This document shows positions 5,958 to 23,793 of a DNA stretch of 32,000 nucleotides, piece after piece. Source of the DNA: Acaryochloris marina S15. Its GTDB lineage: Bacteria > Cyanobacteriota > Cyanobacteriia > Thermosynechococcales > Thermosynechococcaceae. A program made the translations under genes and the position numbers. The first letter of the stretch is position 1. Each line of letters opens with the position of its first letter. Location of the stretch: contig NZ_CP064923.1 in assembly GCF_018336915.1 (NCBI RefSeq), forward strand, positions 4,080,001-4,112,000, written 5' to 3'. Below the pieces are notes generated by a model. It had not been told where the DNA came from. It worked only from the letters and a program-made list of their open reading frames with translations, and did not search any database.

Positions 5958-5981
5958 AGAAATCGTCAAAAAAACGTACAG

Positions 5982-6054: not shown

Positions 6055-6059
6055 TTTCA

Positions 6060-6109
6060 AAAAAATGTTTTACGGCTCTTCGCTAGTGAAGAGCCGTAAA
6101 ACATTTTTT
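6060..6109. terminator. Strong bidirectional rho-independent terminator immediately after tRNA-Glu
   Basis: A perfect 22-bp inverted repeat (aaaaaatgttttacggctcttc / gaagagccgtaaaacatttttt) surrounds a 6-nt loop, gctagt. It has an A-run on the left and a T-run on the right. Confidence 0.85.
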
Positions 6110-6371
6110 ATTCTGTCTATCTCAGTAATCTCTGAGTTCCCATTAGGTTCAGGACATTCCCCTATCATTCATGTTTGATGACCACGGGAGATGTCAGGTT
6201 CTCTATGAAATTTGTAGAAACTAACGCAAAACTGTTGTTACATTAATAAACGGGGAAGTCTGCAGAAGAGTTATTCTCTGCGCTATCTGATATTCTCCCA
6301 GATGCTGTTCAGTATTTCGCTGCAAGCATTTCAGTTCACTTAACTAGCAAACATTGAGGGCGCTTTCTGCA

Positions 6372-9637: not shown

Positions 9638-11749
9638 ATGACCAACGACACCCCCATCGCCGCCCAAGATAACCCTCTCCTCATCTGTGAAGGCTTGCCC
9701 CCTTTTGACCAAATTGAAGCGGAGCACGTGCTGCCCGCCATCACGCAACTTTTAACCGAGCTAGAGCAGGAATTGCAAGCCCTAGAAACAGACGTCCAAC
9801 CCACTTGGACTGGATTGGTGGAACCCTTAGAACAGCTCGGCGACCGATTGAGCTGGAGCTGGGGTATTGTTGGACATTTAATGGGGGTCAAAAACTCTCC
9901 AGAATTACGGAAAGCCTATGAAGCTGGCCAACCCAAGATCGTGGAATTTATCACTCGCTTGAGCCAGAGTCGCCCTATTTACGAAACCTATAAAAAACTG
10001 CAACAGAGTCCAGACTGGTCTCAATTAGATCCGGCTCAACAACGCATCGTTGAGAGTGCGATTCGGGAGGCAGAGCTATCGGGTGTGGGTCTGATTGGAG
10101 AGGTCAAAGAGCGATTCAATCAAATTCAGCTGGAATTAGCGACTCTATCGACTCAATTCTCGAACCATGTCTTGGATGCAACCAAAGCATTCAATATTCT
10201 ACTAACCAATCCCAAGGAAGTGGCAGGCTTACCGCCAAGCTTACTAAGCCTAGCGGCCCAGGCAGCTCGGGCAGTGGGAGAGAAAGACTCCACGCCAGAG
10301 CATGGTCCTTGGTTAATGACCCTTGACATTCCCTGTTTTGGCCCATTTATGCAGCATAGCCAGCGCCGCGACTTACGGGAAAAGCTGTATCGAGCCTATA
10401 TTAGCCGGGCTTCTGAAGGGGAATTTGATAACACTGAGATTATCGATCGAATTCTCAAGCTGCGAAAAGAAGAAGCAAAACTTCTTGGCTTTACAACCTA
10501 TGCGGAAGCCAGTCTAGCGAGTAAAATGGCCCCCACAGTTTCTGCCGTTGAAACCTTACAGGAGCAACTCCGACAGGCTAGTTTCGATCAAGCTACTGCA
10601 GAACTCGAAACCCTCAAAACCTTTGCCAAGGAGCAAGGATCTGAGGAAGATAGCGATCTCAAGCATTGGGATGTCAGTTTCTGGGCCGAGCGCCAGCGAG
10701 AAGCCAAGTTTGATATTACTGATGAGCAATTGCGCCCCTATTTCCCCTTACCCCAGGTCTTAGACGGCTTGTTTAATCTGGTCAACCGCCTGTTTGGGGT
10801 GACGGTGACCGCTGCCGATGGTCAAGCTCCGGTTTGGCAGGAAGATGTTCGCTATTTTCAAGTCGCCAATGAACAGGGAGAACCTATCGCTCACTTCTAC
10901 CTGGATCCTTACTCTCGCCCAGCGGAGAAGCGGGGCGGTGCCTGGATGGATGAATGCTTGGGTCGCGCCAAGTTCCATCGGGGTGATACGGTCCAGACTC
11001 GCTTACCCGTTGCCTATTTGATTTGTAATCAAACCCCTCCAGTAGATGGTAAACCCAGTTTAATGACCTTCAGAGAGGTGGAAACCCTCTTTCATGAGTT
11101 CGGCCATGGCTTGCAGCATATGCTCACTCAGGTGGATTATGCGGGCGCTGCAGGCATCAGTAATGTGGAATGGGATGCGGTCGAACTGCCCAGTCAGTTT
11201 ATGGAAAACTGGTGCTATGACCGCCAAACCCTGATGGGCATGGCCAAGCACTATGAGACAGGTGAATCATTACCTGAAGAGTATTACCAGAAGCTGCTGG
11301 CGGCTCGGACCTATATGAGTGGCAGCACCATGCTGCGGCAGCTCCACTTTGGCATGGTGGATATGGAACTGCACCATAACTACGAGCCCGGTGGTTCTGA
11401 GAAAGTGAAACAGGTCCGCGATCGCATTGCCAAAACCACCACCATCTTGCCTCCCTTGCCAGAAGATTCTTTTCTCTGCTCCTTTGGGCACATTTTTGCC
11501 GGGGGGTATTCCGCCGGATACTACAGCTACAAATGGGCTGAAGTGCTGAGTGCCGACGCTTTTTCTGCCTTTGAAGAAGCAGGATTAGAGAACGATGCTG
11601 CCATTCGAGAGACGGGCCGCCGATTTCGCGATACGGTTCTAGCGTTAGGAGGAAGTCAGCATCCCATGGAAGTCTTCAAATCTTTCAGAGGGCGAGAACC
11701 AAGCACTGAAGCGCTGCTTCGCCATAGTGGTCTAAAAGCCGAAGCCTAA
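9638..11749 (+). CDS. prlC: M3 family metallopeptidase (oligopeptidase A-like)
   Basis: 703 aa. It has the zinc motif HEFGH (LFHEFGHGLQH) and thimet/oligopeptidase-like architecture along its length. Confidence 0.9.
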   Translation: MTNDTPIAAQDNPLLICEGLPPFDQIEAEHVLPAITQLLTELEQELQALETDVQPTWTGLVEPLEQLGDRLSWSWGIVGHLMGVKNSPELRKAYEAGQPKIVEFITRLSQSRPIYETYKKLQQSPDWSQLDPAQQRIVESAIREAELSGVGLIGEVKERFNQIQLELATLSTQFSNHVLDATKAFNILLTNPKEVAGLPPSLLSLAAQAARAVGEKDSTPEHGPWLMTLDIPCFGPFMQHSQRRDLREKLYRAYISRASEGEFDNTEIIDRILKLRKEEAKLLGFTTYAEASLASKMAPTVSAVETLQEQLRQASFDQATAELETLKTFAKEQGSEEDSDLKHWDVSFWAERQREAKFDITDEQLRPYFPLPQVLDGLFNLVNRLFGVTVTAADGQAPVWQEDVRYFQVANEQGEPIAHFYLDPYSRPAEKRGGAWMDECLGRAKFHRGDTVQTRLPVAYLICNQTPPVDGKPSLMTFREVETLFHEFGHGLQHMLTQVDYAGAAGISNVEWDAVELPSQFMENWCYDRQTLMGMAKHYETGESLPEEYYQKLLAARTYMSGSTMLRQLHFGMVDMELHHNYEPGGSEKVKQVRDRIAKTTTILPPLPEDSFLCSFGHIFAGGYSAGYYSYKWAEVLSADAFSAFEEAGLENDAAIRETGRRFRDTVLALGGSQHPMEVFKSFRGREPSTEALLRHSGLKAEA

Positions 11750-12015
11750 ATGTATTTGGCCAACATTTAGAACCGATTGCTAAACACAACTGGTCCTGAT
11801 TTTTGCCACACAAGCCAGTATCATCCAAATTTTCGACATCAGGGATGGGATAGAGCCAAGTAAACATCAGGCCCTATTCCGTCCCTATTTTTTCTCGATC
11901 AGGGATAAAATGCTACGGCTACCAGAATAAACAAAAGTAAATGACCAAGAAGCATTAAAATTCATTTAAGCTGCCAACCTCAGCCCCATGGGACTACCTA
12001 AATCGGGACTGAACA

Positions 12016-12040
12016 GTATCACAAAAATATTTTGTGATAC
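12016..12040. promoter_or_regulatory. Operator-like palindrome upstream of the kinase gene
   Basis: gtatcacaaaa-ata-ttttgtgatac has perfect 11-bp arms around a 3-nt centre, 159 nt upstream of the ATG at 12199. It contains TCACA/TGTGA half-sites in inside-out orientation. Confidence 0.35.
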
Positions 12041-12198
12041 CCATTGATATCGAAACTACACAAGATACGAATGTTATCTTGTCCCCATCCTTTGACTTGA
12101 GGCCAGTTTCCCTGTCCTTTGACCTAGTACCATCACTGTTGTCTTCTCCAAAGCTCCTATGATGGGCCTTTTGAAAAAATACTGTTATTCCTTGGGAA

Positions 12199-13650
12199 AT
12201 GTCTCAGTGTCTTAATCCTGAGTGCTTGCACTCCAATGCCAGTGATAGTTCAACATGTCAACAATGTGGTTGGTCTCTACTCCTAGGCGGGCACTATCGT
12301 GCCATTCGATCCCTGGGAACAGGGGGGTTCTCAAATACCTTTTCGGCAATAGATGAGCACTGTTTGCAGTCTCCATGCGTGATCAAGCAGTTTATTCCAC
12401 CTCAATTAGATCCAAGCCGGGTAGAGAAATCAATCGCCCTTTTTCATCAAGAAGCATCGATATTAAAGGAACTGGGCAATCACCCCCAAATCCCTTCGCT
12501 ATTGGCTTTCTTAGAACAGGACGGACAGCTTTATCTGATCCAGGAATTTATCGAAGGGCAAGATCTATTTCAAGAAGCCATCGAAAATGGCCCCTTCAGT
12601 GAACAGCAGATTCAACAACTGTTTACAGAGCTGTTGCCGATCTTGCAGTTTATTCATGAGCGACAGGTGGTCCACCGAGACATCAAACCCGGCAATATTC
12701 TTCGTCAAGAAAATGGCTCCCTGGTACTGATTGATTTTGGGGGGTCCTTACAATTGGAAGGCCAGTTTCGACCCGTCACCGGAACACCTGGCTATGCCTC
12801 CCCAGAACAACTCAAGGGCCAAGTAGAAGCAGCTAGCGATTTACATAGCTTGGCAATAACAGCGATGCGCCTCTTGACAGGATATCTTGCCCAAGAAGAC
12901 TCAGATCCCTTTGCCAATCCGCAACAACGGCATCAAGTCTGGCATCGCCTCAAGGTCAATGTCAGCCCTGAACTAACGCAAATTTTTGATAACCTTCTCC
13001 ACCCAGACATTCAACAGCGGTATCAATCAGCCATCGAAGTGTGGCAAGCCCTAAGTCCCAATGCGAACCTATCGTCTAGCCCTTCACCCAGTCTTCAGAC
13101 CCTGTCGTCCCCCCTACAACCCAAAATGACGACCTCTGCATCAACCCCTGTCCTAAAAAGCGATGTAGGGGCAAATTACACCTATTTAAAAGACTTATTA
13201 ACCCAACAAAATTTCGCTGCTGCTGACCAAGAAACTTGGAATCTGATGCTAAAAATTGCGGGTATGACCACACAAGAAGCGCTCAATATTCAGGTAGTTC
13301 AGAATTTTCCTCTCCAAGATCTAAAAACTTTAGATTCTTTGTGGACAGAGTATAGTGGTGGACACTTTGGATTTTCAGCTCAAAGACAAATCTACCAGCG
13401 GCTCGGCGGTTCTCAAACGTTAGATTACGCCGTTTGGCAAACATTTGGAAAGCAAATCGGTTGGTTTAGCGAGGAACGATGGCAAGACTATACCAACTTA
13501 AAATTCACCCTCAGCGCACCGATCGGTCACTTACCCGCTTGTTTCGCAGATCCTCTTAATCGTCAGGGGGTTGACCGAGGTGTTTGCGGGTGGTGGCGCT
13601 TAGGATTTGTAACCCTCATTCACCGCCTGACATCATCAGTGAATGAATAA
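12199..13650 (+). CDS. Ser/Thr protein kinase with an N-terminal 4-Cys zinc-ribbon-like motif and a C-terminal GUN4 (porphyrin-binding) domain
   Basis: The 4-Cys motif uses C4, C9, C20 and C23 (CLNPEC..CQQCG). Kinase motifs are GTGGFS, VIK (K63), HRDIKPGN, DFG and TPGYASPE. An S/P-rich linker spans 286-320. Residues ~322-475 look like GUN4 (AADQETWNLMLKIAG, FPLQDLKTLDSLWTEYSGGHFGFSAQ, GHLP). Confidence 0.85.
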   Translation: MSQCLNPECLHSNASDSSTCQQCGWSLLLGGHYRAIRSLGTGGFSNTFSAIDEHCLQSPCVIKQFIPPQLDPSRVEKSIALFHQEASILKELGNHPQIPSLLAFLEQDGQLYLIQEFIEGQDLFQEAIENGPFSEQQIQQLFTELLPILQFIHERQVVHRDIKPGNILRQENGSLVLIDFGGSLQLEGQFRPVTGTPGYASPEQLKGQVEAASDLHSLAITAMRLLTGYLAQEDSDPFANPQQRHQVWHRLKVNVSPELTQIFDNLLHPDIQQRYQSAIEVWQALSPNANLSSSPSPSLQTLSSPLQPKMTTSASTPVLKSDVGANYTYLKDLLTQQNFAAADQETWNLMLKIAGMTTQEALNIQVVQNFPLQDLKTLDSLWTEYSGGHFGFSAQRQIYQRLGGSQTLDYAVWQTFGKQIGWFSEERWQDYTNLKFTLSAPIGHLPACFADPLNRQGVDRGVCGWWRLGFVTLIHRLTSSVNE

Positions 13651-13997
13651 ATCGCGCAGAATCTAAACCCTAAATATCTTGAGCTATTTGCTCTCTGCCA
13701 TAAAAATTAATTAATTCAATGAACGATTACCTGCTTCTTAGAACTGTTATTTATGCATGAAAGATAGCCCAACTTGGGGTTGATTCAAGGGTGGCATTTT
13801 TACAATGGGTATCTCTTCGTTGCATATTCTCTCTGAACATTGGAAAATCACTACAAGGTAAAATTTCACTGCAAATCTTACCCTTAATTTTATAAACTGT
13901 TTTTACATTGGTGTATTTAATACATCCTTAAAACCCGAATTTTGGGATGCTTCCTCTGACGGTTAATGCTTGGCTTACATATGAATGAGGCTATTTT

Positions 13998-16085
13998 GTG
14001 ATGACACATTCTTCTACTCCCTTGGACATCGATACGGCTGACCAGGAGGATCTTCCTACCCATCAAAACTCATCAAGATCGGCCGATCCGTCCTTTCACA
14101 TCCAGGACTTAGAGGCCGATGAGCCTACATCTGGCCCCTGGGATATGCAGATGGATGTAAGTGAAGCAGAAGCCAATCGAGGAGAAACGTTAGAAAGTCA
14201 GAATTCACATCCTGAAGCCCAAGCAACCGCCACTTCTAGCTGGGCTGCATCCCCCTTGGCAGGCCCTGTGAAGAATAAAGACGCTCCCTTTAAAGCTAAA
14301 GCCATATCTCTGGCCTTGGCGGTCAGTATGTTGCCAGTGCTCGCAATCGGAACCGTCACTTACTTTAGTGGGCAACTCGTTCAGCAACAAATTACTCAGG
14401 AACGGCAAGCTGGTAAACCAGATCTTCAAGTAACCGAACGCTCTATTCAGCAACAACTCCCTTCCCTATTGATTGGAACAGGAATCACAGCCCTTCTGGC
14501 CGGTGCGATCGCAGCTTGGTTAGCCCATCGAGCAACAACTCCTGTACTTAAAGCAGTTCAGGTCTCTGATGAGATGCTTCAGCAAATTCGGCCGGGTATG
14601 GTTAAGTCCGGGGAAGCTGAAGCAAATATCTTAAGCCAGCTAGAACATAATATTCGCAGCATCGAAGGCTATATCCCTGCGCTATTGGCCCAGCAAGATG
14701 CCGAAATTGAGCAATTACAGATGCTCAAGTACGTCACCAATAAGATTCGCGCCTCACTCAATGAAGATGATGTCCTCAACACCACCGTTGAAGAAGCTCG
14801 CAAAATCATCAAGGCCGATCGGGTCATTGTCTATGGGTTTGATGCAGACTGGTATGGCACGGTGATAGCTGAATCCGCTATTCCAGGCATTGCCAAGGCC
14901 TTATGGGCCGAAATTAGAGACCCTTGTTTTGCCGAGAACTACGTCGAGAAGTATCGTGCAGGACGAATTCAAGCCATTAATAACGTCCACGAAGCAGGCT
15001 TGACCCAATGCCATCTGGCCCAACTAGAGCCCTTTCAAGTGAAAGCCAACTTAGTGGTGCCGATTCTGCGGGAGGACAAGCTATTTGGTTTATTGATTGC
15101 CCATCAATGTACCCAACCCCGAGTATGGCAAGAGTCAGAAATCAACTTCTTTGCCCAAGTGGCCTCCCAAGTTGGATTTGCCCTTGAACATTCCCGGCTC
15201 CTGGTTCAAGTCGATCAAGCCAATAATAATGCAATGGCTAACACCCAGCAGACGGCTCAAGACTACGAAATGCTACAGCAGAGAATTTCGCAGCTTTCCC
15301 TAGAAAGTAATGGCGTGGTCGAACTATTTGGCACAGATGCCAATATGGCGATCACCCATACGCAAGACCAGATGCATGAAATTGCTGAAGCTGCGGATCA
15401 AATTCATGTCATCCTCAATGAGATTACCCAAACCCAGGAACAGGTGCAGATTGCCACGCAAGAAAGTCAAACTGGGATGACAAATACCGTGGACCATTTA
15501 CAGTCTCTATCCAAGTTGGTGGAAACCGTTGACCAATCGGTTCATCCCTTACAGCAACCCACCCAACAACTCGGTGAGCTGATTGATTTAATGGGACATG
15601 TGGTGTCCCAAGTCCAGCTACAGGCTATGAATGCAGCCCTTGAAGCGGCTCGATCTGGTGCTGCGGGTCAATCCTTTGCTGAAATTGCCGAAAAGGTACA
15701 TGGCTTATCTCGGCAGCTGGACGCGACCCTGACGGACGTCAAGCCCTTAGTCAGCCATATTCAAACAACGACTCAATCTGTGGGTCAGGAGATGTCTACG
15801 GGAAAAAACACAATTGCGGTGGATACCCAAACATTAGGCAATACCCAAGCGAAGTTGCATGAATTAAATAGCCTGAACCAACGGGTCTTAGATCTCGTGC
15901 AGCAAATTGCTGAAGTCACCACGAATCAGGTGGAATTATCGGTGTTAGGTCACAAAACCTTGGATCATCTCGCAAACACTACGCTCAGTGCCACAACACA
16001 ATCCTCCCAAATTGCAGAAGCCGTTCATCAGCTGATGGCTACGGTCAATAACGATCTCAACTCGGAAGATTCATTGTCAGCCTAG
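13998..16085 (+). CDS. Methyl-accepting chemotaxis-type protein with a cyanobacteriochrome-like GAF domain (PixJ/TaxD-like photoreceptor)
   Basis: It has an acidic N-terminus and two predicted TM helices (~103-124 and ~154-178). The GAF domain covers ~245-400. An MCP coiled-coil hairpin has its tip at MNAALEAARSG (544-554). The start is GTG 13998 or the adjacent ATG 14001. Confidence 0.85.
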   Translation: MMTHSSTPLDIDTADQEDLPTHQNSSRSADPSFHIQDLEADEPTSGPWDMQMDVSEAEANRGETLESQNSHPEAQATATSSWAASPLAGPVKNKDAPFKAKAISLALAVSMLPVLAIGTVTYFSGQLVQQQITQERQAGKPDLQVTERSIQQQLPSLLIGTGITALLAGAIAAWLAHRATTPVLKAVQVSDEMLQQIRPGMVKSGEAEANILSQLEHNIRSIEGYIPALLAQQDAEIEQLQMLKYVTNKIRASLNEDDVLNTTVEEARKIIKADRVIVYGFDADWYGTVIAESAIPGIAKALWAEIRDPCFAENYVEKYRAGRIQAINNVHEAGLTQCHLAQLEPFQVKANLVVPILREDKLFGLLIAHQCTQPRVWQESEINFFAQVASQVGFALEHSRLLVQVDQANNNAMANTQQTAQDYEMLQQRISQLSLESNGVVELFGTDANMAITHTQDQMHEIAEAADQIHVILNEITQTQEQVQIATQESQTGMTNTVDHLQSLSKLVETVDQSVHPLQQPTQQLGELIDLMGHVVSQVQLQAMNAALEAARSGAAGQSFAEIAEKVHGLSRQLDATLTDVKPLVSHIQTTTQSVGQEMSTGKNTIAVDTQTLGNTQAKLHELNSLNQRVLDLVQQIAEVTTNQVELSVLGHKTLDHLANTTLSATTQSSQIAEAVHQLMATVNNDLNSEDSLSA
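14730..15197 (+). other. GAF domain with DXCF motif plus canonical Cys-His (candidate two-Cys, bilin-binding cyanobacteriochrome)
   Basis: D308-P-C310-F311 is encoded at 14919-14930. C338-H339 is encoded at 15009-15014. The flanks are typical of CBCR GAFs (DRVIVYGFD..W.GTVIAES; FQVKANLVVPIL; LLIAHQC..W). Confidence 0.7.
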
Positions 16086-16179
16086 TTCATGACTCTGATA
16101 ATCCATCCTTTGCTTTGTTCTGCCTTTGGCCCAGTATCATTTTCTCTGGGGCTATTTCATCTAGTCTGCCGATCAGTTC

Positions 16180-18012
16180 ATGACCTATTCAAGGAAGCCA
16201 GACATGGCTAATGAGACGCCGCTGCGCGATCCTGCCTATCAACTGTTTTTTCAAGAAGCATTAGAACTTTTACTGCAGATTGACACCACCTTACAAGAGG
16301 TTTTGCAAATTCCCAGTAAAACATCCATTGATTTTTTACTGGAGATGGCGCAGATCTTGGATGAGGGAGCCCAATCCCTGGATCTCACTCAGTTAGCCCA
16401 TCAGGTCCAAACCTTTTCGGGTTTCATGCTCAACTTACAGCAAGATCCCTTGGGGACGACCCCGGGGGATGCAGATCTGCTGAGGCAAGCCTATAAAGGG
16501 ATGCAAACAGCTTTAGAAGCTTATATTTCTGGCCCACCAGACTTAGACACTTCTTCAGAACTAGATTTTTCTGCCTATGTGCCTGTTTCTTTAGACGTCG
16601 CCGAAGATGAGTTAGCTGCCAATGGAAATTTAATGCTGCCAGCAGGGGGAAGCGATGTTACCTCTTTAATCTTGATCTCTGACGTTGCGGAAATTTTAGA
16701 GCAGCTCAATCAGGTATTGATCGAGCCCCAGGTCTACGACCTTGCGGCTGAGTTAAAAGCATTAACAGAAGCATTATTGGGTTGGGGAGAAGTCCTGGAG
16801 CTGAATGAGCTGACCACGATTGCTCAATCCACCTTGGAAATGTTGGACAGCAATCCCCAATCTGCGATTTCAATTGGTCAATTATCTTTGGCTGGCTTTC
16901 GAGCAGCCCATAAAACAGCCTTACAGGCATTGCAGACTGACTCTGTTTCACAGCAGAGTCCAGGGAATCAGCAGCAGAGCTCGGAGATGCTGGATACTCA
17001 ATCGATACCCACTGCCATGTTGTCCCCCATGGCTGCAGAAATTCCCACTGCTGAGTCATTATCGGCTTCAGATGAGGTGATCTTAAATGCTACCCAATTG
17101 TTTGTCTGGCAGCAGGAAAGGCTGCTATTTACAATTCCATCAGAAGCTGTGGCAGAAATCCTAATTCCTAGAGCTGAACAGTTGATGGGCAATGAGCATC
17201 AGCGTTGTTTAAGTTGGCAGCAACAATTTATCCCTATTCATCCCTTAGGGCATTTACTCAATCAAGGGGAGAGCCATTGGCCCCGGCTGACCGCAGCGGT
17301 ATTGCCTGGGAATGGAGTGGGCAGTCCCAAGGTATTTGGGAGTTCTCCCTTCGTTATTATTCATCAGGGGGGGCAGACCCTGGCGTTAGAAGTTGAAATC
17401 ACCCGATTGGTGACAGAGTCAGAGCTGGTTCTACAAATCCCAGAAGAACAAATCCATTGTCCTTATTTTTCTGGCGAGACGGCTTTGGAGTCAGAGGAGT
17501 ATGGGGTAGTAGATATTGCCGCCCTGCTCAATGAAATGTTGGATTTAAGTCCGCTGCCAATGCCAAAGGCAGTGCGGCTGTCCAGCCCAGCAGTGTCTGC
17601 CAGTCCCAAGCCTAAACGCCCTCAAAGGCTCCGTAAAAAAACGCGATCGCAAACCACAATACTCGTGGTTGATGATTCCAAAATGGTCCGCATGATGGTA
17701 ACCACGGCGCTACAATCAGCCGGATATGAAGTCCTAGAGGCTGCTGATGGGCAATTAGCCATCGAACAGGTAGAGCGAGCGGATATTCAGCTGATTATCT
17801 GTGACGTAGAAATGCCCAATATGAATGGGTTTGAGTTTCTAGAATATCGCTGCCGTCAGCCAGCCATTATGAACCTGCCGGTGGTGATGCTCAGTACCTG
17901 CAATAGCAATCAGCATCGACAGTTAGCGACAACCTTGGGCGCTAGTGCCTACCTGGCAAAACCTTATGATGAATCCAATCTCTTAGCCACCCTGCAATCG
18001 CTGGTGGGCTAA
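16180..18012 (+). CDS. CheA-like scaffold/response regulator: Hpt-like region(s) + CheW-like domain + CheY-like receiver, without dimerisation or HATPase domains
   Basis: Residues 17-88 are Hpt-like (YQLFFQEALELL...). Residues ~303-453 are CheW-like (LFVWQQERLLFTIPSEAVAEIL..FVIIHQGGQTLALEVE). Residues 493-610 are a REC domain with DD498-499, D542, S572/T573 and K594. I saw no N/G1/G2 ATP-binding boxes. An alternative start is the ATG at 16204. Confidence 0.8.
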   Translation: MTYSRKPDMANETPLRDPAYQLFFQEALELLLQIDTTLQEVLQIPSKTSIDFLLEMAQILDEGAQSLDLTQLAHQVQTFSGFMLNLQQDPLGTTPGDADLLRQAYKGMQTALEAYISGPPDLDTSSELDFSAYVPVSLDVAEDELAANGNLMLPAGGSDVTSLILISDVAEILEQLNQVLIEPQVYDLAAELKALTEALLGWGEVLELNELTTIAQSTLEMLDSNPQSAISIGQLSLAGFRAAHKTALQALQTDSVSQQSPGNQQQSSEMLDTQSIPTAMLSPMAAEIPTAESLSASDEVILNATQLFVWQQERLLFTIPSEAVAEILIPRAEQLMGNEHQRCLSWQQQFIPIHPLGHLLNQGESHWPRLTAAVLPGNGVGSPKVFGSSPFVIIHQGGQTLALEVEITRLVTESELVLQIPEEQIHCPYFSGETALESEEYGVVDIAALLNEMLDLSPLPMPKAVRLSSPAVSASPKPKRPQRLRKKTRSQTTILVVDDSKMVRMMVTTALQSAGYEVLEAADGQLAIEQVERADIQLIICDVEMPNMNGFEFLEYRCRQPAIMNLPVVMLSTCNSNQHRQLATTLGASAYLAKPYDESNLLATLQSLVG

Positions 18013-18067
18013 AATCATCCGCCATTGTTTGAGGGGAATGGCGTTTAGGGATAGATCTAGCTAGACG

Positions 18068-18289
18068 CTACACAGACTCTATTTCGTGCTCGCCCAAATG
18101 AATGCGGAGTTTTTTACTGAACTTAACGAGATAAGGGTAATTGGCGCTCACTTCTCGCCCTTGCCAGTCCTTGATGACTTGAATTAGCTCACCTTCCGTG
18201 CCTTTAATATCGAAGGGGTTATTTCGATGTTCAGGATGATGGTAGATAACAACTGATTCTTTGACGCGGACTTGATCGCCTACTTGCAT
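18068..18289 (-). CDS. ftrV: Ferredoxin-thioredoxin reductase variable subunit
   Basis: 73 aa. VGDQVRVKESVVIYHHPEHRNNPFDIKG..DWQGREVSANYPYLVKF matches the FTR variable chain as I remember it. Confidence 0.88.
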   Translation of the reverse strand: MQVGDQVRVKESVVIYHHPEHRNNPFDIKGTEGELIQVIKDWQGREVSANYPYLVKFSKKLRIHLGEHEIESV

Positions 18290-18589
18290 AACTTAGCCGA
18301 TTACTCTAAACAGGGGCATCAACTGCTTGCGAATCTCTAGAGAGACTGCAGAACAATCTCTTTTAATCTTTGCACAAGATGGACCGTTGCTGATGAAGCA
18401 GTTGCAGGACCTTGCTGTAAAAGCAAAACTTTAAAGTCAGCCAAAGCAAGCCCCAATCAACTAATGGAAGCTTAAAGGGATGTAACAGAAGATACTATTA
18501 TTTTTTGCAAAATGAAGGTTGGTCAGCCTAACTTGTAGGAGCAACCCCCGACACCGCTCCCCTATCGTCCTTGCACCCAAAGGTATCTC

Positions 18590-19837
18590 ATGCTTTCAGT
18601 TGCCCAAGCAGAGTCTCTCATTCTCAAGCTTGCTCTACCGCTCACCGATCAAGAAGTCACCTCTCTTCTCAACGCTCAGCAGCGGATTCTGGCCACAGAT
18701 ATTTCCAGTAAACTGGATTTTCCCTATTGGGATAATTCAGCGATGGATGGGTATGCGGTTCGCTACGAAGATCTCAAAACTTGTGGACCTGACACCCCAG
18801 CCATCCTTGATGTAGTGACGGAAATACCAGCCGGGACTTGCCCTAATATCTCGTTAGCTCCTGGGCAAGCTGCCCGCATTTTTACTGGGGCCATGCTGCC
18901 CCAGGGGGCAGATACAGTGGTGATGCAAGAGAATACGCTCCGACAAGGTGAGCAAGTTCATATCCTGCAATGCCCTCAACCCCAAGCCTTTGTCAGAAAG
19001 CGAGGCGCTTACTATCAAGGGGGAACACCGATTTTAAAGCAAGGCATTACTCTAACGCCTCCAGATATTGCCATTTTGGCAACGGTGCAGTGCACAGAGA
19101 TTCCTGTTTATCGTCGGCCCGTGGTCGCGATTTTATCGACAGGCAATGAGCTCATTGCCCCCGATCAGCCGTTACAGCCCGGACAAATTGTCGATTCCAA
19201 TCGGTATGCTTTAGCAGCGTTGGTGCAGGCAATGGGAGCGGAAGTGCGACTGGTAGATCCGGTGGGTGACCAAGTTGAGGATTTGAGAACTGCGATCTCA
19301 ACTACAATTCCCCAGACCGATGTAGTGATTTCCTCCGGGGGAGTCTCGGTTGGGGATTACGATTATGTGGATCAAGTACTGGCTGAGTTAAATGCTGATA
19401 TTCATATTCGGTCTGTGGCCGTTAAGCCAGGTAAACCTTTAACCTTTGCCACATTTCCTGCTGCAGACGGAAAGCAACCTGTCCTGTATTTTGGTCTACC
19501 AGGAAATCCTGTTTCGGCTTTGGTCAGTTTTTGGCGATTTGTGCAGCCCGCCCTCCGCAAAGTATCCGGTCAGGCTGCCAATTGGAGGCCTCAGTTTGTA
19601 GAAGCTAGAACCTTACATCCTTTACCAGCAGGCGGCCAGCGAGAAATTTATCTCTGGGGGAAATTGAGCCTGGATTCCGGCCAATATGAATTTGCATTAG
19701 CTGGCGGGAGTCATAGCTCTGGTAATCTGATGAATTTGTCTCAAACCAACGGTTTAGTTGTTATTCCTATCGATCATCCGGCAACAGAAGCTGGGGGGGT
19801 AGTGTCTGTGATGCAAGTGGAGGCAGCCAACACCTAA
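18590..19837 (+). CDS. moeA: Molybdopterin molybdotransferase
   Basis: 415 aa. It shows MoeA hallmarks (NSAMDGYAV, STGNEL, SSGGVSVGDYDY, KPGKP, GLPGNPVSA). Confidence 0.92.
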   Translation: MLSVAQAESLILKLALPLTDQEVTSLLNAQQRILATDISSKLDFPYWDNSAMDGYAVRYEDLKTCGPDTPAILDVVTEIPAGTCPNISLAPGQAARIFTGAMLPQGADTVVMQENTLRQGEQVHILQCPQPQAFVRKRGAYYQGGTPILKQGITLTPPDIAILATVQCTEIPVYRRPVVAILSTGNELIAPDQPLQPGQIVDSNRYALAALVQAMGAEVRLVDPVGDQVEDLRTAISTTIPQTDVVISSGGVSVGDYDYVDQVLAELNADIHIRSVAVKPGKPLTFATFPAADGKQPVLYFGLPGNPVSALVSFWRFVQPALRKVSGQAANWRPQFVEARTLHPLPAGGQREIYLWGKLSLDSGQYEFALAGGSHSSGNLMNLSQTNGLVVIPIDHPATEAGGVVSVMQVEAANT

Positions 19838-19992: not shown

Positions 19993-21342
19993 TTGTTTGC
20001 AGGAGTGATGGGCATGGCCACTGCCATCAAAATTAAACCCAAAGATCGGGATGCAGTGATTCAGGCCCTGCAAGCGGGCGTGGTTCCACGCAAAGGACAA
20101 CATTTGATTCAAGTGGGACGGGCTGAAGAAATTAAAGCCATTCTGCGAGATGTCGAACGCATCGCCGAAGGCGGCGCCGCCATCCGCTTCATTATTGGTG
20201 AGTACGGCTCGGGTAAAACCTTTTTCATCAATTTGACCCGCACCATTGCTTTAGAGAAAAAGCTGGTGACAGCCCATGCTGACCTAACGCCCGATCGGCG
20301 CTTACATGCGTCTAGTGGTCAAGCCCGGTCCCTGTATACCGAACTCATGGCCAACCTATCGACTCGCACCAAACCAGATGGTGGAGCTTTGCCCAGTGTC
20401 GTCGAACGATTTGTGACGTCAGCGATGACAGAAGGACGCGATCGCAAGGTCAATCCCGAGGACATTATCCGCGAGCGATTAGCTCATCTCTCGGAATTCG
20501 TCGGGGGGTATGACTTTGCCGAAGTAATTGCCGCCTACTGGCGCGGTCATGATAGCGGAGATGATGCCTTGAAAGCCAATGCAGTCCGCTGGCTCCGGGG
20601 AGAATTTTCAACCAAAACCGAAGCCCGAACGGCCTTAGGAGTCAGAACCATCGTGGATGATACCAACGTCTACGATCAACTCAAGCTTTTTGCCCAGCTG
20701 GTGAAACTAGCGGGATACGACGGCTTTATGATTTGCTTGGATGAGATGGTGAATCTATATAAACTCTCCAACACCCAGGCCCGCAAAAGCAATTACGAAC
20801 AAATTCTGCGCATCCTCAATGATTGTTTGCAGGGGAATGCTGGGCATTTAGGGTTTATGTTTGGTGGCACTCCTGATTTGCTAATGGATACACGCCGAGG
20901 ACTCTACAGCTATCCTGCGCTGCAAACGCGCTTGGCAGAGAATAGTTTTGCAGGTGACGGTCTAGTAGATTACAGTGGACCTGTTTTACGCTTAGCGAAC
21001 CTAAGTCCCGAAGACCTGTACGTGCTGCTGGGCAAAATTCGCCTAGTGTTTGCCGAAGGCAATACGAAGAAATCTCGCCTTCCAGATCAAGGCATCCAGG
21101 CATTTATGGCCCATTGCTCAGACTATATTGGCGAAGCGTACTTCCGTACCCCTCGCAATACCATTAAGGCCTTTGTCGATTTATTAGCAGTTCTTGAGCA
21201 AAACACCCAAGTATCCTGGAAAGATCTGGTCACTAAAGTCAGCATTGGTACGGACGTCAATGGAGGAGCCAGCCCCAAAGCAGCCTCCAAAAACGGAAAG
21301 AAAAGCCAAACCAATGATGATCTAGCTTCTTTCAAGTTGTAA
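19993..21342 (+). CDS. P-loop ATPase of the DUF2791 / BrxC-BrxD-like family (orphan)
   Basis: Walker A is GEYGSGKTF and Walker B is FMICLDEM. The N-terminus (ALQAGVVPRKGQHLIQVGR) is typical of this family as I remember it. The ORF opens at TTG 19993. A likelier start is the ATG at 20005 or 20011. Confidence 0.7.
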   Translation: MFAGVMGMATAIKIKPKDRDAVIQALQAGVVPRKGQHLIQVGRAEEIKAILRDVERIAEGGAAIRFIIGEYGSGKTFFINLTRTIALEKKLVTAHADLTPDRRLHASSGQARSLYTELMANLSTRTKPDGGALPSVVERFVTSAMTEGRDRKVNPEDIIRERLAHLSEFVGGYDFAEVIAAYWRGHDSGDDALKANAVRWLRGEFSTKTEARTALGVRTIVDDTNVYDQLKLFAQLVKLAGYDGFMICLDEMVNLYKLSNTQARKSNYEQILRILNDCLQGNAGHLGFMFGGTPDLLMDTRRGLYSYPALQTRLAENSFAGDGLVDYSGPVLRLANLSPEDLYVLLGKIRLVFAEGNTKKSRLPDQGIQAFMAHCSDYIGEAYFRTPRNTIKAFVDLLAVLEQNTQVSWKDLVTKVSIGTDVNGGASPKAASKNGKKSQTNDDLASFKL

Positions 21343-21382
21343 AAATCAGGGCTGTATCGCTTGAGTAACAGCCCTGATTTTT
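21341..21382. terminator. Bidirectional rho-independent terminator between convergent genes
   Basis: The stem aaaaatcagggctgt / acagccctgattttt is a perfect 15 bp around a 12-nt loop. It overlaps both stop codons (taa at 21340-21342 and tta at 21381-21383). Confidence 0.8.
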
Positions 21383-23255
21383 AATAGCGGGTTCCAGCTT
21401 TGCGATGATGAACTGCAGTTTTGACGTTAGATTTCAACACTTCACCGTTCTTGACCGTGGCATAGATGACCCAGTGGTCCCCACATTCCATCCGATTAGC
21501 CACTTCGCACTCCAAATAAGAGATTGATTCTTTCAGAATAGGACTGCCATTACTAGCAGTATCCGTTTCAAGCCCCTGAAATCGGTCTTCGCCTGGACCA
21601 AAAGACTTTAGGAAGTGCTTCATCGTTCGCTGATAGTTATCTTCACCCAAAATATTGAGCACAAACGTACTCTCGTTATGGAGTAAGGACTCAACGGCTC
21701 GCTCCTTGGCAACCGCAACCGTAAATCCCGGTGGATTGAAGGTGGCCTGTGAGACCCATGAGGCCAGCATCCCACTCGCAACATCGCCTTGCTTTGCAGT
21801 CAGAATACAGAGAGAACCGACAATTCGACCTACAGCCTGTTCCGTAGAAGTGGTTTGGGCTCCTAATTGGGTAGAACTTTGGGGACGAGATTTGGCTTTC
21901 TTGGCTTTCTTAATCTTTTGAGCAAAATCAGTGCCCGATTCTTCACAGCTTTTGAGAGTGACATCGGTCGGCTTGAATTTCACCTTAATGGAGTCAAACC
22001 CAAAGCTGTAACCTGCATCCCGCAACTTTCCTTCTAATAAATCAATCGCTTCACCACTCCAGCCAAAGGAACCAAAAACCCCCGTGGGCTTCGTTTTGGG
22101 AACAGTCGACAGCAGAATTCCTAGGGCCGTTTGAATTTGAGTCGGGGCATGTCCCCCAAGGGTTGGCGAACCAATAATAAAGCCCTCGCAATTGTCGGCA
22201 ACGGCTTGAATATCCTTGGGGCTAGCCGTTTCACAATTGATCACCTGCACCGCTACCCCTGCCTTGGTAATCCCTCGAGCGATCGCTTGGCCAATAGTGG
22301 CAGTATTGCCGTAGGCCGAAGCATAAAGAATCGCCACCGAACTGGTTTTCTTTTTCTGGACCTCACTCCATTGCTGATAGGTACGGGTCAGTTCCTGAAC
22401 ACCATACCGAACAATAGGACCGTGGTTAGGGGCATAGGTGCTGATCGCCAAAGGCGCTAACTTTTCGAGCACGACTTCGACCTGGCGGGCATAGGGGGCT
22501 TTCAAACAGTCAAAGTAATAGCGCCGATCTTCCCTCAGTTGAGTAGTGTTGTGGTCAAAGGCATCCTCGCTACAGAGATGAATGCCAAAGAATTTATCGG
22601 AAAAGAGCGTTCGAGTGGCAGCATCGTAAGTTAACAAGCTATCGGGATAGCGAGGCGTAGAGGCCCGAACAAACTGCAGTCGGTGCCCTTGTCCTAAATC
22701 CAGGGTCTTATCGCTGGCACTACTTCTGACAATCTTGAGATTCAGTTCATAGTCTGGGAGAGCAGATTTGAGGGCCGCTGCACCAGGGTTGGAACAAACG
22801 ATAGTGACGCTGGGAACCTGATCGAGAAGTCCCTTTAAGGTTTCTGCGCGGTTGGCATTGACATGACCCAGCACCAAATAATCCAGCGTCTGTAAATCAA
22901 AGTCAAAATCGTCTAAATCAACAGACTGCTGAGTCACCCACCGGAGTTGATCCCAAAGCCGACCGAATAGTGGTTTAAAGGCAGCACTCGACTGAGCCGA
23001 TATGGCCTGAAGCTGTTGAAAAAAGATTTCTGTGAAAGAGCCTCCTGGCGGATCGATCAGGGCAGTTTTATCCCCTTTAACGATGTAGGTATTGGCGGTT
23101 GTACCTCGTTCAAGAGCATATTCAATTTCAAATCGGAGGCGATTCCAACTGCGCGATCGCAACGCCAATGTCCCCGGTGCGACAGGAACCACCTGTACAT
23201 CTCTAGCTTTATCGGTTGCAGACTGGGAAGTGGGAGTAAGGGTGGATGGGGTCAT
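21381..23255 (-). CDS. Class-C flavodiiron protein, Flv1/Flv2-type (non-canonical diiron site)
   Basis: 624 aa with metallo-beta-lactamase-like, flavodoxin-like and flavin-reductase-like domains. HVNANR replaces the diiron ligand motif HxExDH. Its ATG at 23255 lies 4 nt after the upstream stop. Confidence 0.9.
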   Translation of the reverse strand: MTPSTLTPTSQSATDKARDVQVVPVAPGTLALRSRSWNRLRFEIEYALERGTTANTYIVKGDKTALIDPPGGSFTEIFFQQLQAISAQSSAAFKPLFGRLWDQLRWVTQQSVDLDDFDFDLQTLDYLVLGHVNANRAETLKGLLDQVPSVTIVCSNPGAAALKSALPDYELNLKIVRSSASDKTLDLGQGHRLQFVRASTPRYPDSLLTYDAATRTLFSDKFFGIHLCSEDAFDHNTTQLREDRRYYFDCLKAPYARQVEVVLEKLAPLAISTYAPNHGPIVRYGVQELTRTYQQWSEVQKKKTSSVAILYASAYGNTATIGQAIARGITKAGVAVQVINCETASPKDIQAVADNCEGFIIGSPTLGGHAPTQIQTALGILLSTVPKTKPTGVFGSFGWSGEAIDLLEGKLRDAGYSFGFDSIKVKFKPTDVTLKSCEESGTDFAQKIKKAKKAKSRPQSSTQLGAQTTSTEQAVGRIVGSLCILTAKQGDVASGMLASWVSQATFNPPGFTVAVAKERAVESLLHNESTFVLNILGEDNYQRTMKHFLKSFGPGEDRFQGLETDTASNGSPILKESISYLECEVANRMECGDHWVIYATVKNGEVLKSNVKTAVHHRKAGTRY

Positions 23256-23259
23256 GAAT

Positions 23260-23793
23260 CTATCCGTCTAACGGCAAGGAAGAACAAGGTTGAAATTGTG
23301 ATAAAAACTGCTGAACGGCTTTAGGATCGCGAAGCGTCATCACGGTCTGTGGGGAAGGCAGCGTAGCCAGCGCTTGGACAATTTTGGGGCGATTGTGACT
23401 GGGAAAACACCATACGTACCATAGGAACTGCCAGTTGAGTCGCTCGGGACAATGAGGGGCCATGTCAGGTCGAGTTTGACCACGATACTGCCAGATGCGC
23501 TTGAGGACATGTACCAGGCATTGCCAGCGAGAAAAATCTAGGAAGATAACCCTATCGGCAACCGGAAGACGCAGATCAAAAGTGCCACTGTAATTGCCGT
23601 CTATAATCCAGGCTTCTGATTGGACTAGGGCTTCCACTCGTCGCCGCCAAGCCTGTGGTTCGGTTTCCATCCAACCTGGCTGCCAATATGCTTGGTCTAA
23701 ATGGATCACTTTCAGGTTGAGAATAGACCCCAACTGCCGAGCTAAGGTAGACTTACCCGCCCCGCAATTTCCAATAATGGCAACCTTTTGCAC
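23260..23793 (-). CDS. P-loop NTPase, FlaR / topology-modulation / adenylate-kinase-like
   Basis: 177 aa. Walker A is GNCGAGKST. The HLDQAYWQPGW and IIDGNY pattern is typical of FlaR-like kinases. It sits between the two flv genes. Confidence 0.8.
   Translation of the reverse strand: MQKVAIIGNCGAGKSTLARQLGSILNLKVIHLDQAYWQPGWMETEPQAWRRRVEALVQSEAWIIDGNYSGTFDLRLPVADRVIFLDFSRWQCLVHVLKRIWQYRGQTRPDMAPHCPERLNWQFLWYVWCFPSHNRPKIVQALATLPSPQTVMTLRDPKAVQQFLSQFQPCSSLPLDG

Follow-up and report, generated by a model that had tools for sequence, protein, structure and literature searches.

Three consecutive plus-strand genes in the 32 kb stretch of Acaryochloris marina DNA analysed here (the window) encode a Ser/Thr kinase fused to a GUN4 domain, a photoreceptor of the methyl-accepting type (MCP) and a CheA derivative without a kinase core. 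No cheA, cheW, cheY or patA gene was found across the whole 32 kb window, as had been predicted from the sequence, and the locus raises the question of what such a receptor signals to and what a CheA derivative of this kind does beside it.

The kinase, the receptor and the CheA derivative

The three reading frames were confirmed, and Pfam and HMM calls upheld the predicted domain assignments of all three proteins, with one amendment to the third.

12199-13650, plus strand: Ser/Thr kinase-GUN4 gene, 483 aa (Pfam, structure matches)
Kinase residues 3-27: 4-Cys prefix, a weak match (NCBIfam 4Cys_prefix_kin, 22.2 bits, slightly under cutoff)
12295-13026, plus strand: Hanks kinase domain, residues 33-276 (Pfam Pkinase, 133.8 bits)
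13159-13539, plus strand: C-terminal GUN4 core domain, residues 321-447 (Pfam GUN4, 134.1 bits)
13651-13997, no strand: intergenic gap between kinase and MCP, 347 bp, AT-rich (34.6% GC)
13998-16085, plus strand: membrane-anchored methyl-accepting-type receptor, 695 aa (Pfam, hydropathy, TePixJ match)
14766-15185, plus strand: GAF domain of the MCP, residues 257-396 (Pfam GAF, 74.4 bits)
14925-15011, plus strand: chromophore cysteines of the GAF domain (TePixJ alignment)
15510-15935, plus strand: signalling domain of the MCP, residues 505-646 (MCPsignal, 59.8 bits)
From 15630, plus strand: diverged hairpin tip of the MCP (tip comparison)
16180-18012, plus strand: PixL-type CheA derivative, 610 aa (BLASTP, family alignment, AF2 model, profiles)
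16231-16527, plus strand: pseudo-Hpt bundle, residues 18-116
16351-16353, plus strand: Gln58 codon, at the P1 phospho-His position (alignments)
16657-16938, plus strand: second helical bundle, following the pseudo-Hpt, residues 160-253
17095-17544, plus strand: CheW/P5-like domain, residues about 306-455
17659-17994, plus strand: receiver (REC), residues 494-605 (Pfam REC, 91.2 bits)
17803-17805, plus strand: Asp542 codon, predicted phospho-acceptor of the receiver (alignment)

The predicted fusion of a Ser/Thr kinase to GUN4 was recovered with all catalytic motifs intact (GTGGFS, K63, HRDIKPGN, DFG and SPE) and with a GUN4 core homologous to solved structures of Gun4, the Mg-chelatase cofactor (T. 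elongatus 1Z3X, E 1.7e-19, and also Synechocystis 1Y6I). The protein is 100% identical to NCBI A. marina entries. The fusion is not, however, as unusual as the original prediction held: kinase-GUN4 proteins of the same architecture are widespread in cyanobacteria and one was noted in Nostoc PCC 7120 in 2005, with a suggested role in regulating chlorophyll synthesis (PMC1262709). In the literature that could be searched, no earlier source was found that ties this fusion to an MCP or CheA-like partner, nor was an earlier description of the trio found.

The start of the receptor is probably ATG 14001, where gene callers and homologues place it. Hydropathy identifies two hydrophobic, putatively transmembrane segments (residues ~98-125 and ~154-177), and the GAF domain matches that of TePixJ (3VV4, E 1.2e-44). 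Alignment to TePixJ locates the DXCF cysteine (DPCF, Cys310, nt 14925-14927) and the canonical CH cysteine (Cys338, nt 15009-15011), in agreement with the two-Cys cyanobacteriochrome type that had been proposed. The MCPs found in equivalent positions in other genomes have tips with a common signature, at 43-71% identity to the window tip against 32-37% for canonical PixJ tips, and depart from the canonical tip at many positions that otherwise hardly vary. A shared signature so unlike that of PixJ suggests that these MCPs may have a dedicated signalling partner.

The third protein, probably starting at ATG 16204 (Met9) as judged by gene callers and homologues, aligns by BLASTP to the full PixL-type CheA P0020 (1060 aa) in two blocks: residues 9-253 correspond to its residues 1-246 (E 3e-22) and residues 317-607 to its 758-1043 (E 1e-50), leaving ~510 residues missing relative to P0020, namely P3/P4 with the dimerisation and HATPase regions. 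No HATPase or H-kinase_dim match was found among 12 family members. REC is the sole Pfam call in the window copy and homologues score above threshold in Pfam for Hpt and CheW; furthermore, the N-terminal family profile matches CheA P1 structures (1I5N, E 7.7e-7) and the profile of the CheW region weakly matches E. coli CheA P5 (8C5V, E 0.008). The CheW-like and REC modules and the absent ATPase core had thus been correctly recognized, but the module described as Hpt-like is a pseudo-Hpt in which Gln58 replaces the phospho-His (AQILDEGA, against AHSIKGGA in canonical PixL). In 14 of the 15 family lineages examined the residue at this position is Q, E, S, R or T, His being kept only in Nostoc 106C. 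Besides Asp542, the receiver keeps the acidic pair D498/D499, S572/T573 and K594.

All four domains of the CheA derivative are under purifying selection, with dN/dS relative to MBIC11017 of 0.13 for the pseudo-Hpt, 0.08 for the second bundle, 0.06 for the CheW-like domain and 0.03 for REC, which is the most constrained domain where it is present. The fastest-evolving parts are the linkers (0.27-0.39), which are long and of low confidence in the AF2 model at residues 118-158 and 253-337. Low dN/dS in every domain indicates that the 'dead' domains are functional. Given the loss of the dimerisation and ATPase core and of the phospho-His, it is proposed that the protein could act neither as a kinase nor as a phosphotransfer protein. 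Pseudo-Hpt proteins such as Arabidopsis AHP6, an inhibitor of phosphorelay, likewise have a substituted phospho-His in an Hpt fold that is under selection; by analogy, retention of such a fold in the window protein would indicate a binding or regulatory role and not transfer, although its lineage, context and partners are unrelated to those of AHP6.

Recurrence of the trio in cyanobacteria

Co-occurrence, the test set in advance, was found in every Acaryochloridaceae locus whose contig spans the three genes (identities of 68-95% for the kinase, 54-87% for the MCP and 52-88% for the CheA derivative) and in five of the six more distant GUN4-kinase neighbourhoods sampled, kinase orthologues further afield being 46-53% identical. 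In A. thomasi, a Thermosynechococcaceae MAG, Hydrococcus C42 and Altericista CCNU0014 the GUN4-kinase is followed by a multi-GAF MCP and a kinase-less CheA, and in GCA_053484935 a CheW-like protein comes directly after it; the Microcoleus orthologue, one of the six, has no module alongside. Two further pairs lie on contigs of identical length, which suggests one shared contig. Neither of the findings named beforehand as speaking against the prediction, a lack of co-conservation and a complete cheA/cheW/cheY set just outside the window in the same operon, was encountered. Flanking genes differ among the distant loci and the spacing within them is tight, with 21-134 bp between the kinase and the next gene and -8 to 65 bp downstream of the MCP. 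The AT-rich gap of 347 bp is real, as had been noted, but the worry that it divides two transcripts is confined to the A. marina clade. A separate promoter may lie there in that clade; a promoter and terminator scan of the gap gave sites no more numerous than in shuffles.

Because their upstream genes are syntenic, A. thomasi and the Thermosynechococcaceae MAG are not fully independent. Five Nostocales loci, which are syntenic and so amount to one observation, have orthologues of the MCP and the kinase-less CheA, there preceded by a different 4-Cys-prefix Ser/Thr kinase; this kinase lacks GUN4 and is 40-42% identical, whereas unlinked kinases reach 46-53%, and it is judged by these identities not to be a specific orthologue of the GUN4-kinase. 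No Ser/Thr kinase lies within 10 kb of the kinase-less CheA/MCP pairs at loci L018 and L091, and the kinase-less layout itself is common to dozens of 50%-identity clusters. The third protein lacks REC in A. thomasi, the MAG and GCA_053484935, and hence these modules hold no two-component phospho-acceptor. Two observations bear on the choice between the circuits first suggested, one that borrows a distant CheA and one in which the Ser/Thr kinase takes its place. The loss of the Hpt His, together with the absence of REC from some orthologues, argues against a phosphorelay through the CheA derivative; where REC is present, retention of all its acceptor residues argues for a surviving His~P donor.

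The locus is best read as one instance of a conserved cyanobacterial signalling module that stands alone, not as a piece of a tax/pix operon, and the recurrence of the trio in distant cyanobacteria points to a light-signalling unit without the usual CheA kinase. In the Tax1/Pix systems of Synechocystis and Thermosynechococcus (PixJ1/TePixJ, PixL, PixG, PixH and PixI) the MCP likewise bears a two-Cys DXCF GAF, and the gene directly after the window MCP descends from PixL, aligning to full CheA at both ends. The domains described for PixL, namely two helical (Hpt-type) ones at the N-terminus, P5 and REC at the C-terminus (PMC11181946), are all shared by the CheA derivative. In contrast to Tax1/Pix, genes for PixG (PatA-type), PixH (CheY) and PixI (CheW) are absent from the window, the catalytic core and phospho-His of PixL are gone, the MCP has a diverged tip, a single GAF and no HAMP domain that could be detected, and the place of the third conserved partner is taken by a GUN4 Ser/Thr kinase, in a host listed as non-motile (PMC2853384).

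Possible routes from receptor to output

It is tentatively suggested, at somewhat under an even chance, that the dead CheA bridges the photoreceptor MCP and the Ser/Thr kinase as a scaffold. The membrane MCP would sense light, expected to be blue/green, through its TePixJ-type two-Cys GAF, and a conformational signal would pass through the diverged tip to the CheW/P5-like domain. The PixL-derived protein, devoid of ATPase/dimerisation core and phospho-His, would serve as the scaffold, its helical bundles and P5 coupling the receptor to the co-conserved Hanks-type kinase, whose GUN4 domain may bind and report a tetrapyrrole as a second input. The output would be Ser/Thr phosphorylation of scaffold, receptor or other targets, with the receiver, where present, as an accessory regulatory or sink element. 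We infer in this way the physical coupling of the kinase to the MCP and scaffold, the direction of the signal and its physiological output. To our knowledge, control of a Hanks kinase by an MCP/CheW-type complex would be without precedent. Several observations count against the scaffold model: the intact, constrained REC implies a His~P donor that the model does not supply; 347 bp separate kinase and MCP in A. marina; the Microcoleus orthologue stands without the module, and the L018 and L091 pairs without a nearby Ser/Thr kinase; and the Nostocales kinase is not a specific orthologue and the A. thomasi and MAG loci are partly dependent.

The main rival to the scaffold model, which is possible but rather unlikely, is that the third protein is an adaptor resembling CheV. 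CheV proteins (Bacillus, Helicobacter, Salmonella) are CheW-REC coupling/adaptation proteins, and the window protein also joins a CheW-like domain to a phosphorylatable receiver, a composition that suggests by analogy coupling or adaptation at the tip of the receptor. Its P5/CheW-like domain would plug the MCP into an array with an active CheA (PixL, PilL or Hmp type) encoded elsewhere, its receiver, phosphorylated in trans by that remote CheA, would be a phosphate sink or adaptation element, as has been proposed for CheV, and the Ser/Thr kinase would be a co-regulated or modulatory neighbour and not the output kinase. This is consistent with the intact acceptor residues and strongest constraint of REC, and a phosphate-sink role has been proposed for the REC of PixL (PMC11181946). 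Canonical PixJ/PixL clusters are widespread in cyanobacteria (L022-L087, in genomes other than those with the module), making a remote CheA plausible in many genomes. Rhodobacter sphaeroides CheA3, part of a split CheA, keeps P1 and P5. It is a natural CheA without a kinase core that works in a receptor cluster and relies on another CheA, CheA4 (PMC6829392). However, CheA3 keeps its phospho-His, is phosphorylated by the CheA4 encoded alongside and carries a CheY6-P phosphatase region, whereas the window protein has no such His, a fused REC and no CheA4-like partner nearby. It also differs from CheV in deriving from CheA P5 and not CheW, in its two extra conserved helical bundles, in the orthologues that lack REC and in the absence of CheA from the locus. 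Furthermore, the diverged tips make it less likely that module MCPs share an array with canonical CheA/CheW, the conserved and tightly spaced GUN4-kinase is left unexplained, no CheA was among the top matches on the A. marina plasmids (a check that covered the plasmids), and the recorded non-motility of the host (PMC2853384) also speaks against an adaptor of this kind.

It is less probable still that the GUN4-kinase acts upstream, phosphorylating the MCP or the S/T/P/Q-rich disordered linkers of the third protein according to tetrapyrrole/redox state, with the receiver or the helical bundles passing the output on to some effector and with REC phosphorylated by an unrelated histidine kinase or acetyl phosphate. 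This reading draws on the same co-conservation evidence as the scaffold model, and the long low-confidence linkers fit such a role, but these linkers evolve fastest, the trio contains no effector domain and the idea is purely inferential. An FHA-GAF histidine kinase adjoins the module in A. thomasi and the related MAG, though not in the window; FHA is a phospho-Thr-binding domain, and this neighbour hints that Ser/Thr kinases and His kinases may communicate.

A role in anti-phage defence, in which a PD-T4-6-like kinase would sit beside a degenerate photoreceptor pair by historical adjacency, is very improbable. The PADLOC model PDLC04062 (PD-T4-6) matches kinase residues 1-449 (E 1.6e-130) and, 2 kb downstream of the trio, a SngB/BrxD-like ATPase is encoded; however, this PADLOC family consists of broad Ser/Thr-kinase models, and PDLC04062 spans the GUN4 region and so effectively models these cyanobacterial proteins, not tested defence. 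Moreover, the kinase gene is fixed on the chromosome between housekeeping genes across Acaryochloris species (68-100% identity), its partners are conserved across orders, and neither a mobile element nor other defence genes are adjacent. Least credible is a functionless pix-operon leftover, whether pseudogene or assembly artefact, which the missing core and His and the lone Pfam call might suggest and which is contradicted by an intact frame of similar length in at least 12 species, an overall dN/dS of ~0.1 (0.03-0.13 per domain), the widespread kinase-less layout and the conserved partner genes.

One further gene adjoins the trio, convergent with it and directly downstream.

18068-18289, minus strand: ftrV-like FeThRed_A gene, 73 aa (ferredoxin-thioredoxin reductase variable chain)

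It is a kept neighbour in Acaryochloridaceae, including A. thomasi, and is absent from the module elsewhere; its adjacency is probably lineage synteny, outside the module.

The three signalling genes

The three plus-strand reading frames of the original prediction are present, exact to the nucleotide:

12199-13650, plus strand: GUN4-kinase, 483 aa; Pfam Pkinase at residues 33-276 (133.8 bits) and GUN4 (PF05419) at residues 321-447 (134.1 bits)
13998-16085, plus strand: GAF-MCP, 695 aa; two hydrophobic segments, one GAF domain and one MCP signalling domain
16180-18012, plus strand: kinase-less CheA, 610 aa; a receiver (REC) is the only Pfam domain

The first protein is 100% identical to A. marina proteins at NCBI. 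Its Hanks motifs are complete (GTGGFS at 40, CVIK with K63, HRDIKPGN at 159, DFG at 179 and SPE at 201), as predicted for a Hanks-type Ser/Thr kinase, and the N-terminus carries a short 4-Cys prefix that scores slightly under the NCBIfam cutoff. The GUN4 core domain matches the structures 1Z3X (E 1.7e-19) and 1Y6I (E 2.4e-14), and both fold and sequence place it in the GUN4 family, with porphyrin binding and Mg-chelatase stimulation as putative activities. In 2005 a kinase-GUN4 fusion was seen in Nostoc PCC 7120, with a conjectured role in regulating chlorophyll synthesis (PMC1262709).

The GAF domain of the second protein matches the TePixJ GAF structures 3VV4 and 4FOF (E about 1e-44) and keeps both cysteines, Cys310 in DPCF (DXCF) and the canonical Cys338 (CH). 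This pair identifies it as a TePixJ-type DXCF cyanobacteriochrome, for which bilin attachment and blue/green photoconversion are predicted. The signalling domain scores 59.8 bits for MCPsignal, above threshold, and its hairpin tip reads QVQLQAMNAALEAARSGAAGQSFAEIAEKVH. The tip of an MCP is the surface that binds CheW and the P5 domain of CheA. Among the module receptors of Acaryochloris, A. thomasi, Hydrococcus, Altericista, Thermosynechococcaceae and Nostocales the tip follows a consensus of approximately SQ(M/V)KLQAM(N/H)xxLE(A/S)(A/S)RxGxxGQxFAxI...(Q/E)LD and is 43-71% identical to that of the window, whereas canonical PixJ-type receptors adjoining full CheAs reach only 32-37%. By tip sequence the module receptors form an MCP class of their own. 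Given that the tip contacts CheW and P5, and that the module tip is both shared and diverged, these receptors may be fitted to a dedicated partner and insulated from canonical arrays. A third tip type, QM(N/T)QQxMNVxIxAGRTG..GQSV, was found in a five-GAF MCP of a Leptolyngbyaceae MAG (L028, 1796-10930) and in an MCP of Pleurocapsa PCC 7327 (L091, 6337-11401). After the MCP, the former locus encodes a kinase-less CheA-like ORF and, next, a CheA that includes an ATPase region, an arrangement that could be a natural split-CheA.

The third protein was compared by BLASTP with P0020, a full-length PixL-type CheA of 1060 aa. Residues 9-253 align with P0020 1-246 and residues 317-607 with 758-1043, the CheW and REC region of P0020 matching at E 1e-50; the dimerisation and ATPase domains between the aligned ends are missing, about 510 residues of P0020 having no counterpart. 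The phospho-His motif, AHSIKGGA in P0020, is AQILDEGA, with Gln58 at the place of the histidine. A profile of the family N-terminus matches CheA P1 structures (1I5N, E 7.7e-7) and that of the CheW-like region matches E. coli CheA P5 weakly (E 0.008); Pfam detects CheW in 6 of 12 family members, and above threshold in Nostocales homologues. Neither H-kinase_dim (P3) nor HATPase_c (P4) gave a Pfam match in the window protein or in any of the 12 members. Of the features of a CheA, the phospho-His and P3/P4 are thus absent and the P5/CheW-like coupling domain is present. The receiver (91.2 bits) conserves D498/D499, D542, S572/T573 and K594. An AF2 model contains four-helix bundles at 18-116 and 160-253, a poorly resolved beta domain and the receiver; since its pTM is 0.27 with low confidence in the CheW region, and Foldseek with the full-length model returned matches to the receiver domain only, domain identity rests on the sequence and profile evidence. 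Given the alignment to P0020 and the loss of the histidine, the third gene is a PixL minus the catalytic core and the phospho-His. The predicted layout of Hpt-like, CheW-like and REC modules with no ATPase core was upheld by BLASTP, profiles and Pfam; 'Hpt-like' holds for the fold of the first module and fails for its phospho-acceptor, and this bundle is referred to here as a pseudo-Hpt.

Conservation of the proteins and of their linkage

Twelve kinase-less CheAs of Acaryochloridaceae, at 52-91% identity, have equal length and layout. Comparison with A. marina MBIC11017 gave dN/dS of 0.13 for the pseudo-Hpt, 0.08 for the second bundle, 0.06 for the CheW-like region and 0.03 for the receiver, against 0.27-0.35 for the linkers. 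Residues 1-460, searched against 1.84 billion cluster representatives, returned 316 relatives, dozens of which are 410-670 aa long and colinear from the first bundle to CheW, with no space for a kinase core; those named come from Oculatella and Prochloraceae and are annotated only as 'response regulator' or 'CheA/CheY-like'. It was considered that the third gene might be a decaying remnant, and this was rejected given the layout shared by 12 members, the low dN/dS and the dozens of kinase-less relatives. The phospho-His position is occupied by another residue in 14 of 15 lineages: Gln in Acaryochloris, A. thomasi, a Thermosynechococcaceae MAG, Aulosira and three Calothrix, Glu in Pleurocapsa PCC 7327, Ser in Hydrococcus, Arg in Altericista and Thr in GCA_053484935. 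Among the members examined, only Nostoc sp. 106C (L014, 9965-11683) keeps the histidine, in AHTIKSAA, and its near relatives Aulosira and Calothrix have Gln. The acidic pair, Asp542, the Ser/Thr and the Lys of the receiver are kept in every member that has a receiver; orthologues of the A. thomasi type have none. In a neighbour-joining tree of CheW domains, marked by long branches, the kinase-less proteins were monophyletic in 3 of 100 bootstraps. Shorter variants occur in two Thermosynechococcaceae MAGs (L017, L018) and a Nostocales MAG (L021) in two layouts, either an MCP with no detectable GAF ahead of a protein reduced to the second bundle, CheW and REC, or an MCP followed by a 329-aa CheW-REC protein, a true CheV-like layout.

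Gene-neighbourhood conservation, proposed as a check on the original prediction, was found both within Acaryochloridaceae and in distant loci. In every Acaryochloridaceae locus whose contig spans the region the order is GUN4-kinase, GAF-MCP, kinase-less CheA, followed by a small convergent gene similar to ftrV (a ferredoxin-thioredoxin reductase variable-chain gene), with genes farther out variable; A. marina MBIC11017 carries all three, their proteins 95%, 87% and 88% identical to those of the window. The distant sample comprised six GUN4-kinase orthologues from outside this family, at 46-53% identity. A. thomasi and a related MAG encode, after the kinase, a three-GAF MCP and next to it a 430-aa protein with the bundles and a CheW-like domain and no receiver. 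Hydrococcus sp. C42 has the kinase, a three-GAF MCP and a 582-aa Hpt/CheW/REC protein; Altericista CCNU0014 has the kinase, a three-GAF MCP and a 547-aa family member with a receiver; and in GCA_053484935 a 404-aa CheW-like protein starts 21 bp after the kinase, with GAF proteins upstream. The Microcoleus orthologue has nothing related adjacent to it. Flanks are unrelated among the distant loci, except for upstream synteny common to A. thomasi and the MAG. In these loci the kinase is separated from the next gene by 21-134 bp and the MCP from its downstream neighbour by -8 to 65 bp, so that the 347-bp AT-rich gap after the kinase in the window is a peculiarity of the A. marina clade. A promoter and terminator scan of 11700-18700 gave no more sites than shuffled sequence. 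Two further pairs of GUN4-kinase and kinase-less CheA have equal longest contigs (41920 and 19219), which suggests that each pair shares a contig.

Five mutually syntenic Nostocales loci hold a two- or three-GAF MCP and a kinase-less Hpt/CheW/REC protein, and upstream of these a 4-Cys-prefix Ser/Thr kinase lacking GUN4 and a periplasmic-binding-protein gene. This kinase was rejected as an orthologue of the GUN4-kinase, given that its 40-42% identity is below that of unlinked kinases (46-53%), and these loci amount to one weak, independent hint of kinase linkage. The periplasmic-binding gene, of Peripla_BP_6 type, lies between kinase and MCP (L014-L016, L019 and L020, about 4600-6300), and a Peripla_BP_5/6 gene is found just downstream of the Hydrococcus module (L174, 13488-14834, minus strand); BLAST detected no similarity between the two. 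Exceptions to the linkage are the MCP and kinase-less CheA pairs of L018 and L091, which have no Ser/Thr kinase nearby. A metagenome scan by a generic kinase motif recovered kinase-only relatives lacking GUN4 in 80 of 80 loci and is uninformative on the rate of co-occurrence.

A histidine kinase of FHA-GAF-HisKA-HATPase architecture adjoins the receiver-less module of A. thomasi and the related MAG (L089 14437-16551 and L090 14163-16280, both minus strand), and is 87% identical between the two, against 44-59% for the module proteins. Given that FHA is a phospho-Thr-binding domain, this kinase may connect Ser/Thr and His-kinase signalling.

Candidate roles of the kinase-less CheA

Bacterial chemosensing has its paradigm in MCP-CheW-CheA arrays, whose output, to our knowledge, has always been taken as His-Asp phosphotransfer. 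In the kinase-less CheA family the ATPase and the phospho-His are gone, the coupling domain and bundles are under purifying selection, and a Ser/Thr kinase lies alongside. Lacking both ATPase and histidine, the third protein is incapable of autophosphorylation and of phosphate relay and, given that its receptor-coupling domain and two helical bundles are still under selection, it is read as a scaffold. No kinase other than the Ser/Thr kinase accompanies it, and the receiver-less variants contain no two-component phospho-acceptor in the module. It is tentatively suggested, as quite possible, that the kinase-less CheA would act as a scaffold coupling the photoreceptor MCP to the GUN4-kinase, with Ser/Thr phosphorylation as the output. 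Should this coupling prove real, it would provide the first case in which chemoreceptor architecture is rewired to a Hanks kinase, would assign a function to the kinase-GUN4 fusion, long known but uncharacterised, and would tie cyanobacteriochrome colour sensing to tetrapyrrole status. DXCF cyanobacteriochrome MCPs and PixL are well known; the literature searched contained no paper that brings together GUN4, cyanobacteriochromes and methyl-accepting proteins and no account of a kinase-less, His-less PixL family.

A. marina is a chlorophyll d cyanobacterium. The fuller proposal, that the Ser/Thr kinase replaces CheA, that the remnant serves for docking, and that the bilin MCP and the tetrapyrrole-binding GUN4 domain would jointly set Ser/Thr phosphorylation directed at pigment or tetrapyrrole metabolism and not at motility, is more doubtful. 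A. marina is listed as non-motile (PMC2853384).

The main argument against the scaffold is the intact receiver. In the proteins that have it, no other domain is as constrained, and on paper it is fully competent, implying that a His~P donor exists somewhere. The same evidence favours the chief rival, in which the kinase-less CheA is a CheV-like adaptor or phosphate sink for a CheA encoded elsewhere, a role that is unlikely, if not markedly so. A CheV combines a CheW-like domain with a receiver whose acceptor residues are intact, and this layout is found here; a sink role has already been proposed for the PixL receiver, and a parallel exists in the split CheA3/CheA4 of R. sphaeroides (PMC6829392). 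A CheV receiver is phosphorylated by its cognate CheA. A split CheA of the CheA3 type keeps the P1 histidine and has a partner CheA (P3-P5) in its cluster, whereas the window protein has no histidine and no HATPase-bearing che gene, nor any other che gene, was found by Pfam annotation of all large ORFs in the 32 kb. The predicted absence of CheA, CheW, CheY and PatA-type regulators from the window accordingly stands, and separates this locus from the Tax/Pix operon, in which PatA-type regulator, CheY, CheW and full CheA are co-located, as seen in canonical form at comparison loci L022-L087. A tblastn search of plasmids for an intact CheA had no Acaryochloris among the best matches listed. Should the CheV-like role be correct, the module would still stand for a separate class of MCP tip and for a family of CheA-derived adaptors, the latter at present annotated only as 'response regulator' or 'CheW'.

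That the Ser/Thr kinase instead acts upstream, as a modulator, is improbable; the FHA-GAF histidine kinase that adjoins the module in A. thomasi and the related MAG is a hint of Ser/Thr-His crosstalk. A role for the GUN4-kinase as an anti-phage defence kinase of PD-T4-6 type is highly improbable: PADLOC model PDLC04062 matches residues 1-449, nearly the full length and including the GUN4 region, at E 1.6e-130, but the PD-T4-6 set consists of broad Ser/Thr-kinase profiles, the gene sits at a constant position between housekeeping genes across Acaryochloris and not in a variable, defence-island-like, stand-alone context, and its MCP and kinase-less CheA partners are kept across orders. The model is probably over-broad, and its label on kinase-GUN4 proteins could misdirect automated defence-system annotation in cyanobacteria.

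Neighbouring genes

The rest of the window holds housekeeping and photosynthesis genes, among them Pcb/IsiA-like antennae, NdhK, PheS, Dus, an M3 peptidase, MoeA, two flavodiiron proteins, HemD and DAHP synthase. Those with a bearing on the module or of separate interest are:

3122-4189 and 4470-5519, minus strand: tandem CP43-like (PF00421) chlorophyll-binding proteins of about 350 aa, probably Pcb/IsiA-type antennae
18068-18289, minus strand: ftrV, 73 aa, convergent to the kinase-less CheA
19993-21342, plus strand: SngB-like ATPase, 449 aa, stand-alone
21381-23255 and 23841-25577, minus strand: tandem flavodiiron-type genes with ODP/lactamase, flavodoxin and flavin reductase domains
23260-23793: 177-aa ORF between the flavodiiron genes, with a weak AAA_18 match
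26752-27630, plus strand: HemD (uroporphyrinogen-III synthase)

The ftrV gene is kept in all Acaryochloridaceae loci, including A. thomasi, and was rejected as a fourth module gene given that its conservation is confined to this family; a redox link to the adjacent kinase is conceivable, given the 4-Cys prefix. HemD lies 9 kb downstream of the GUN4-kinase, which is probably a coincidence, since the neighbourhood past ftrV is not conserved elsewhere. No other Shango or BREX component was found in the window beside the SngB-like ATPase, which sits between MoeA and a flavodiiron gene and matches PADLOC SngB (Shango) at E 1.3e-181 and Pfam BrxC_BrxD at E 7e-158.
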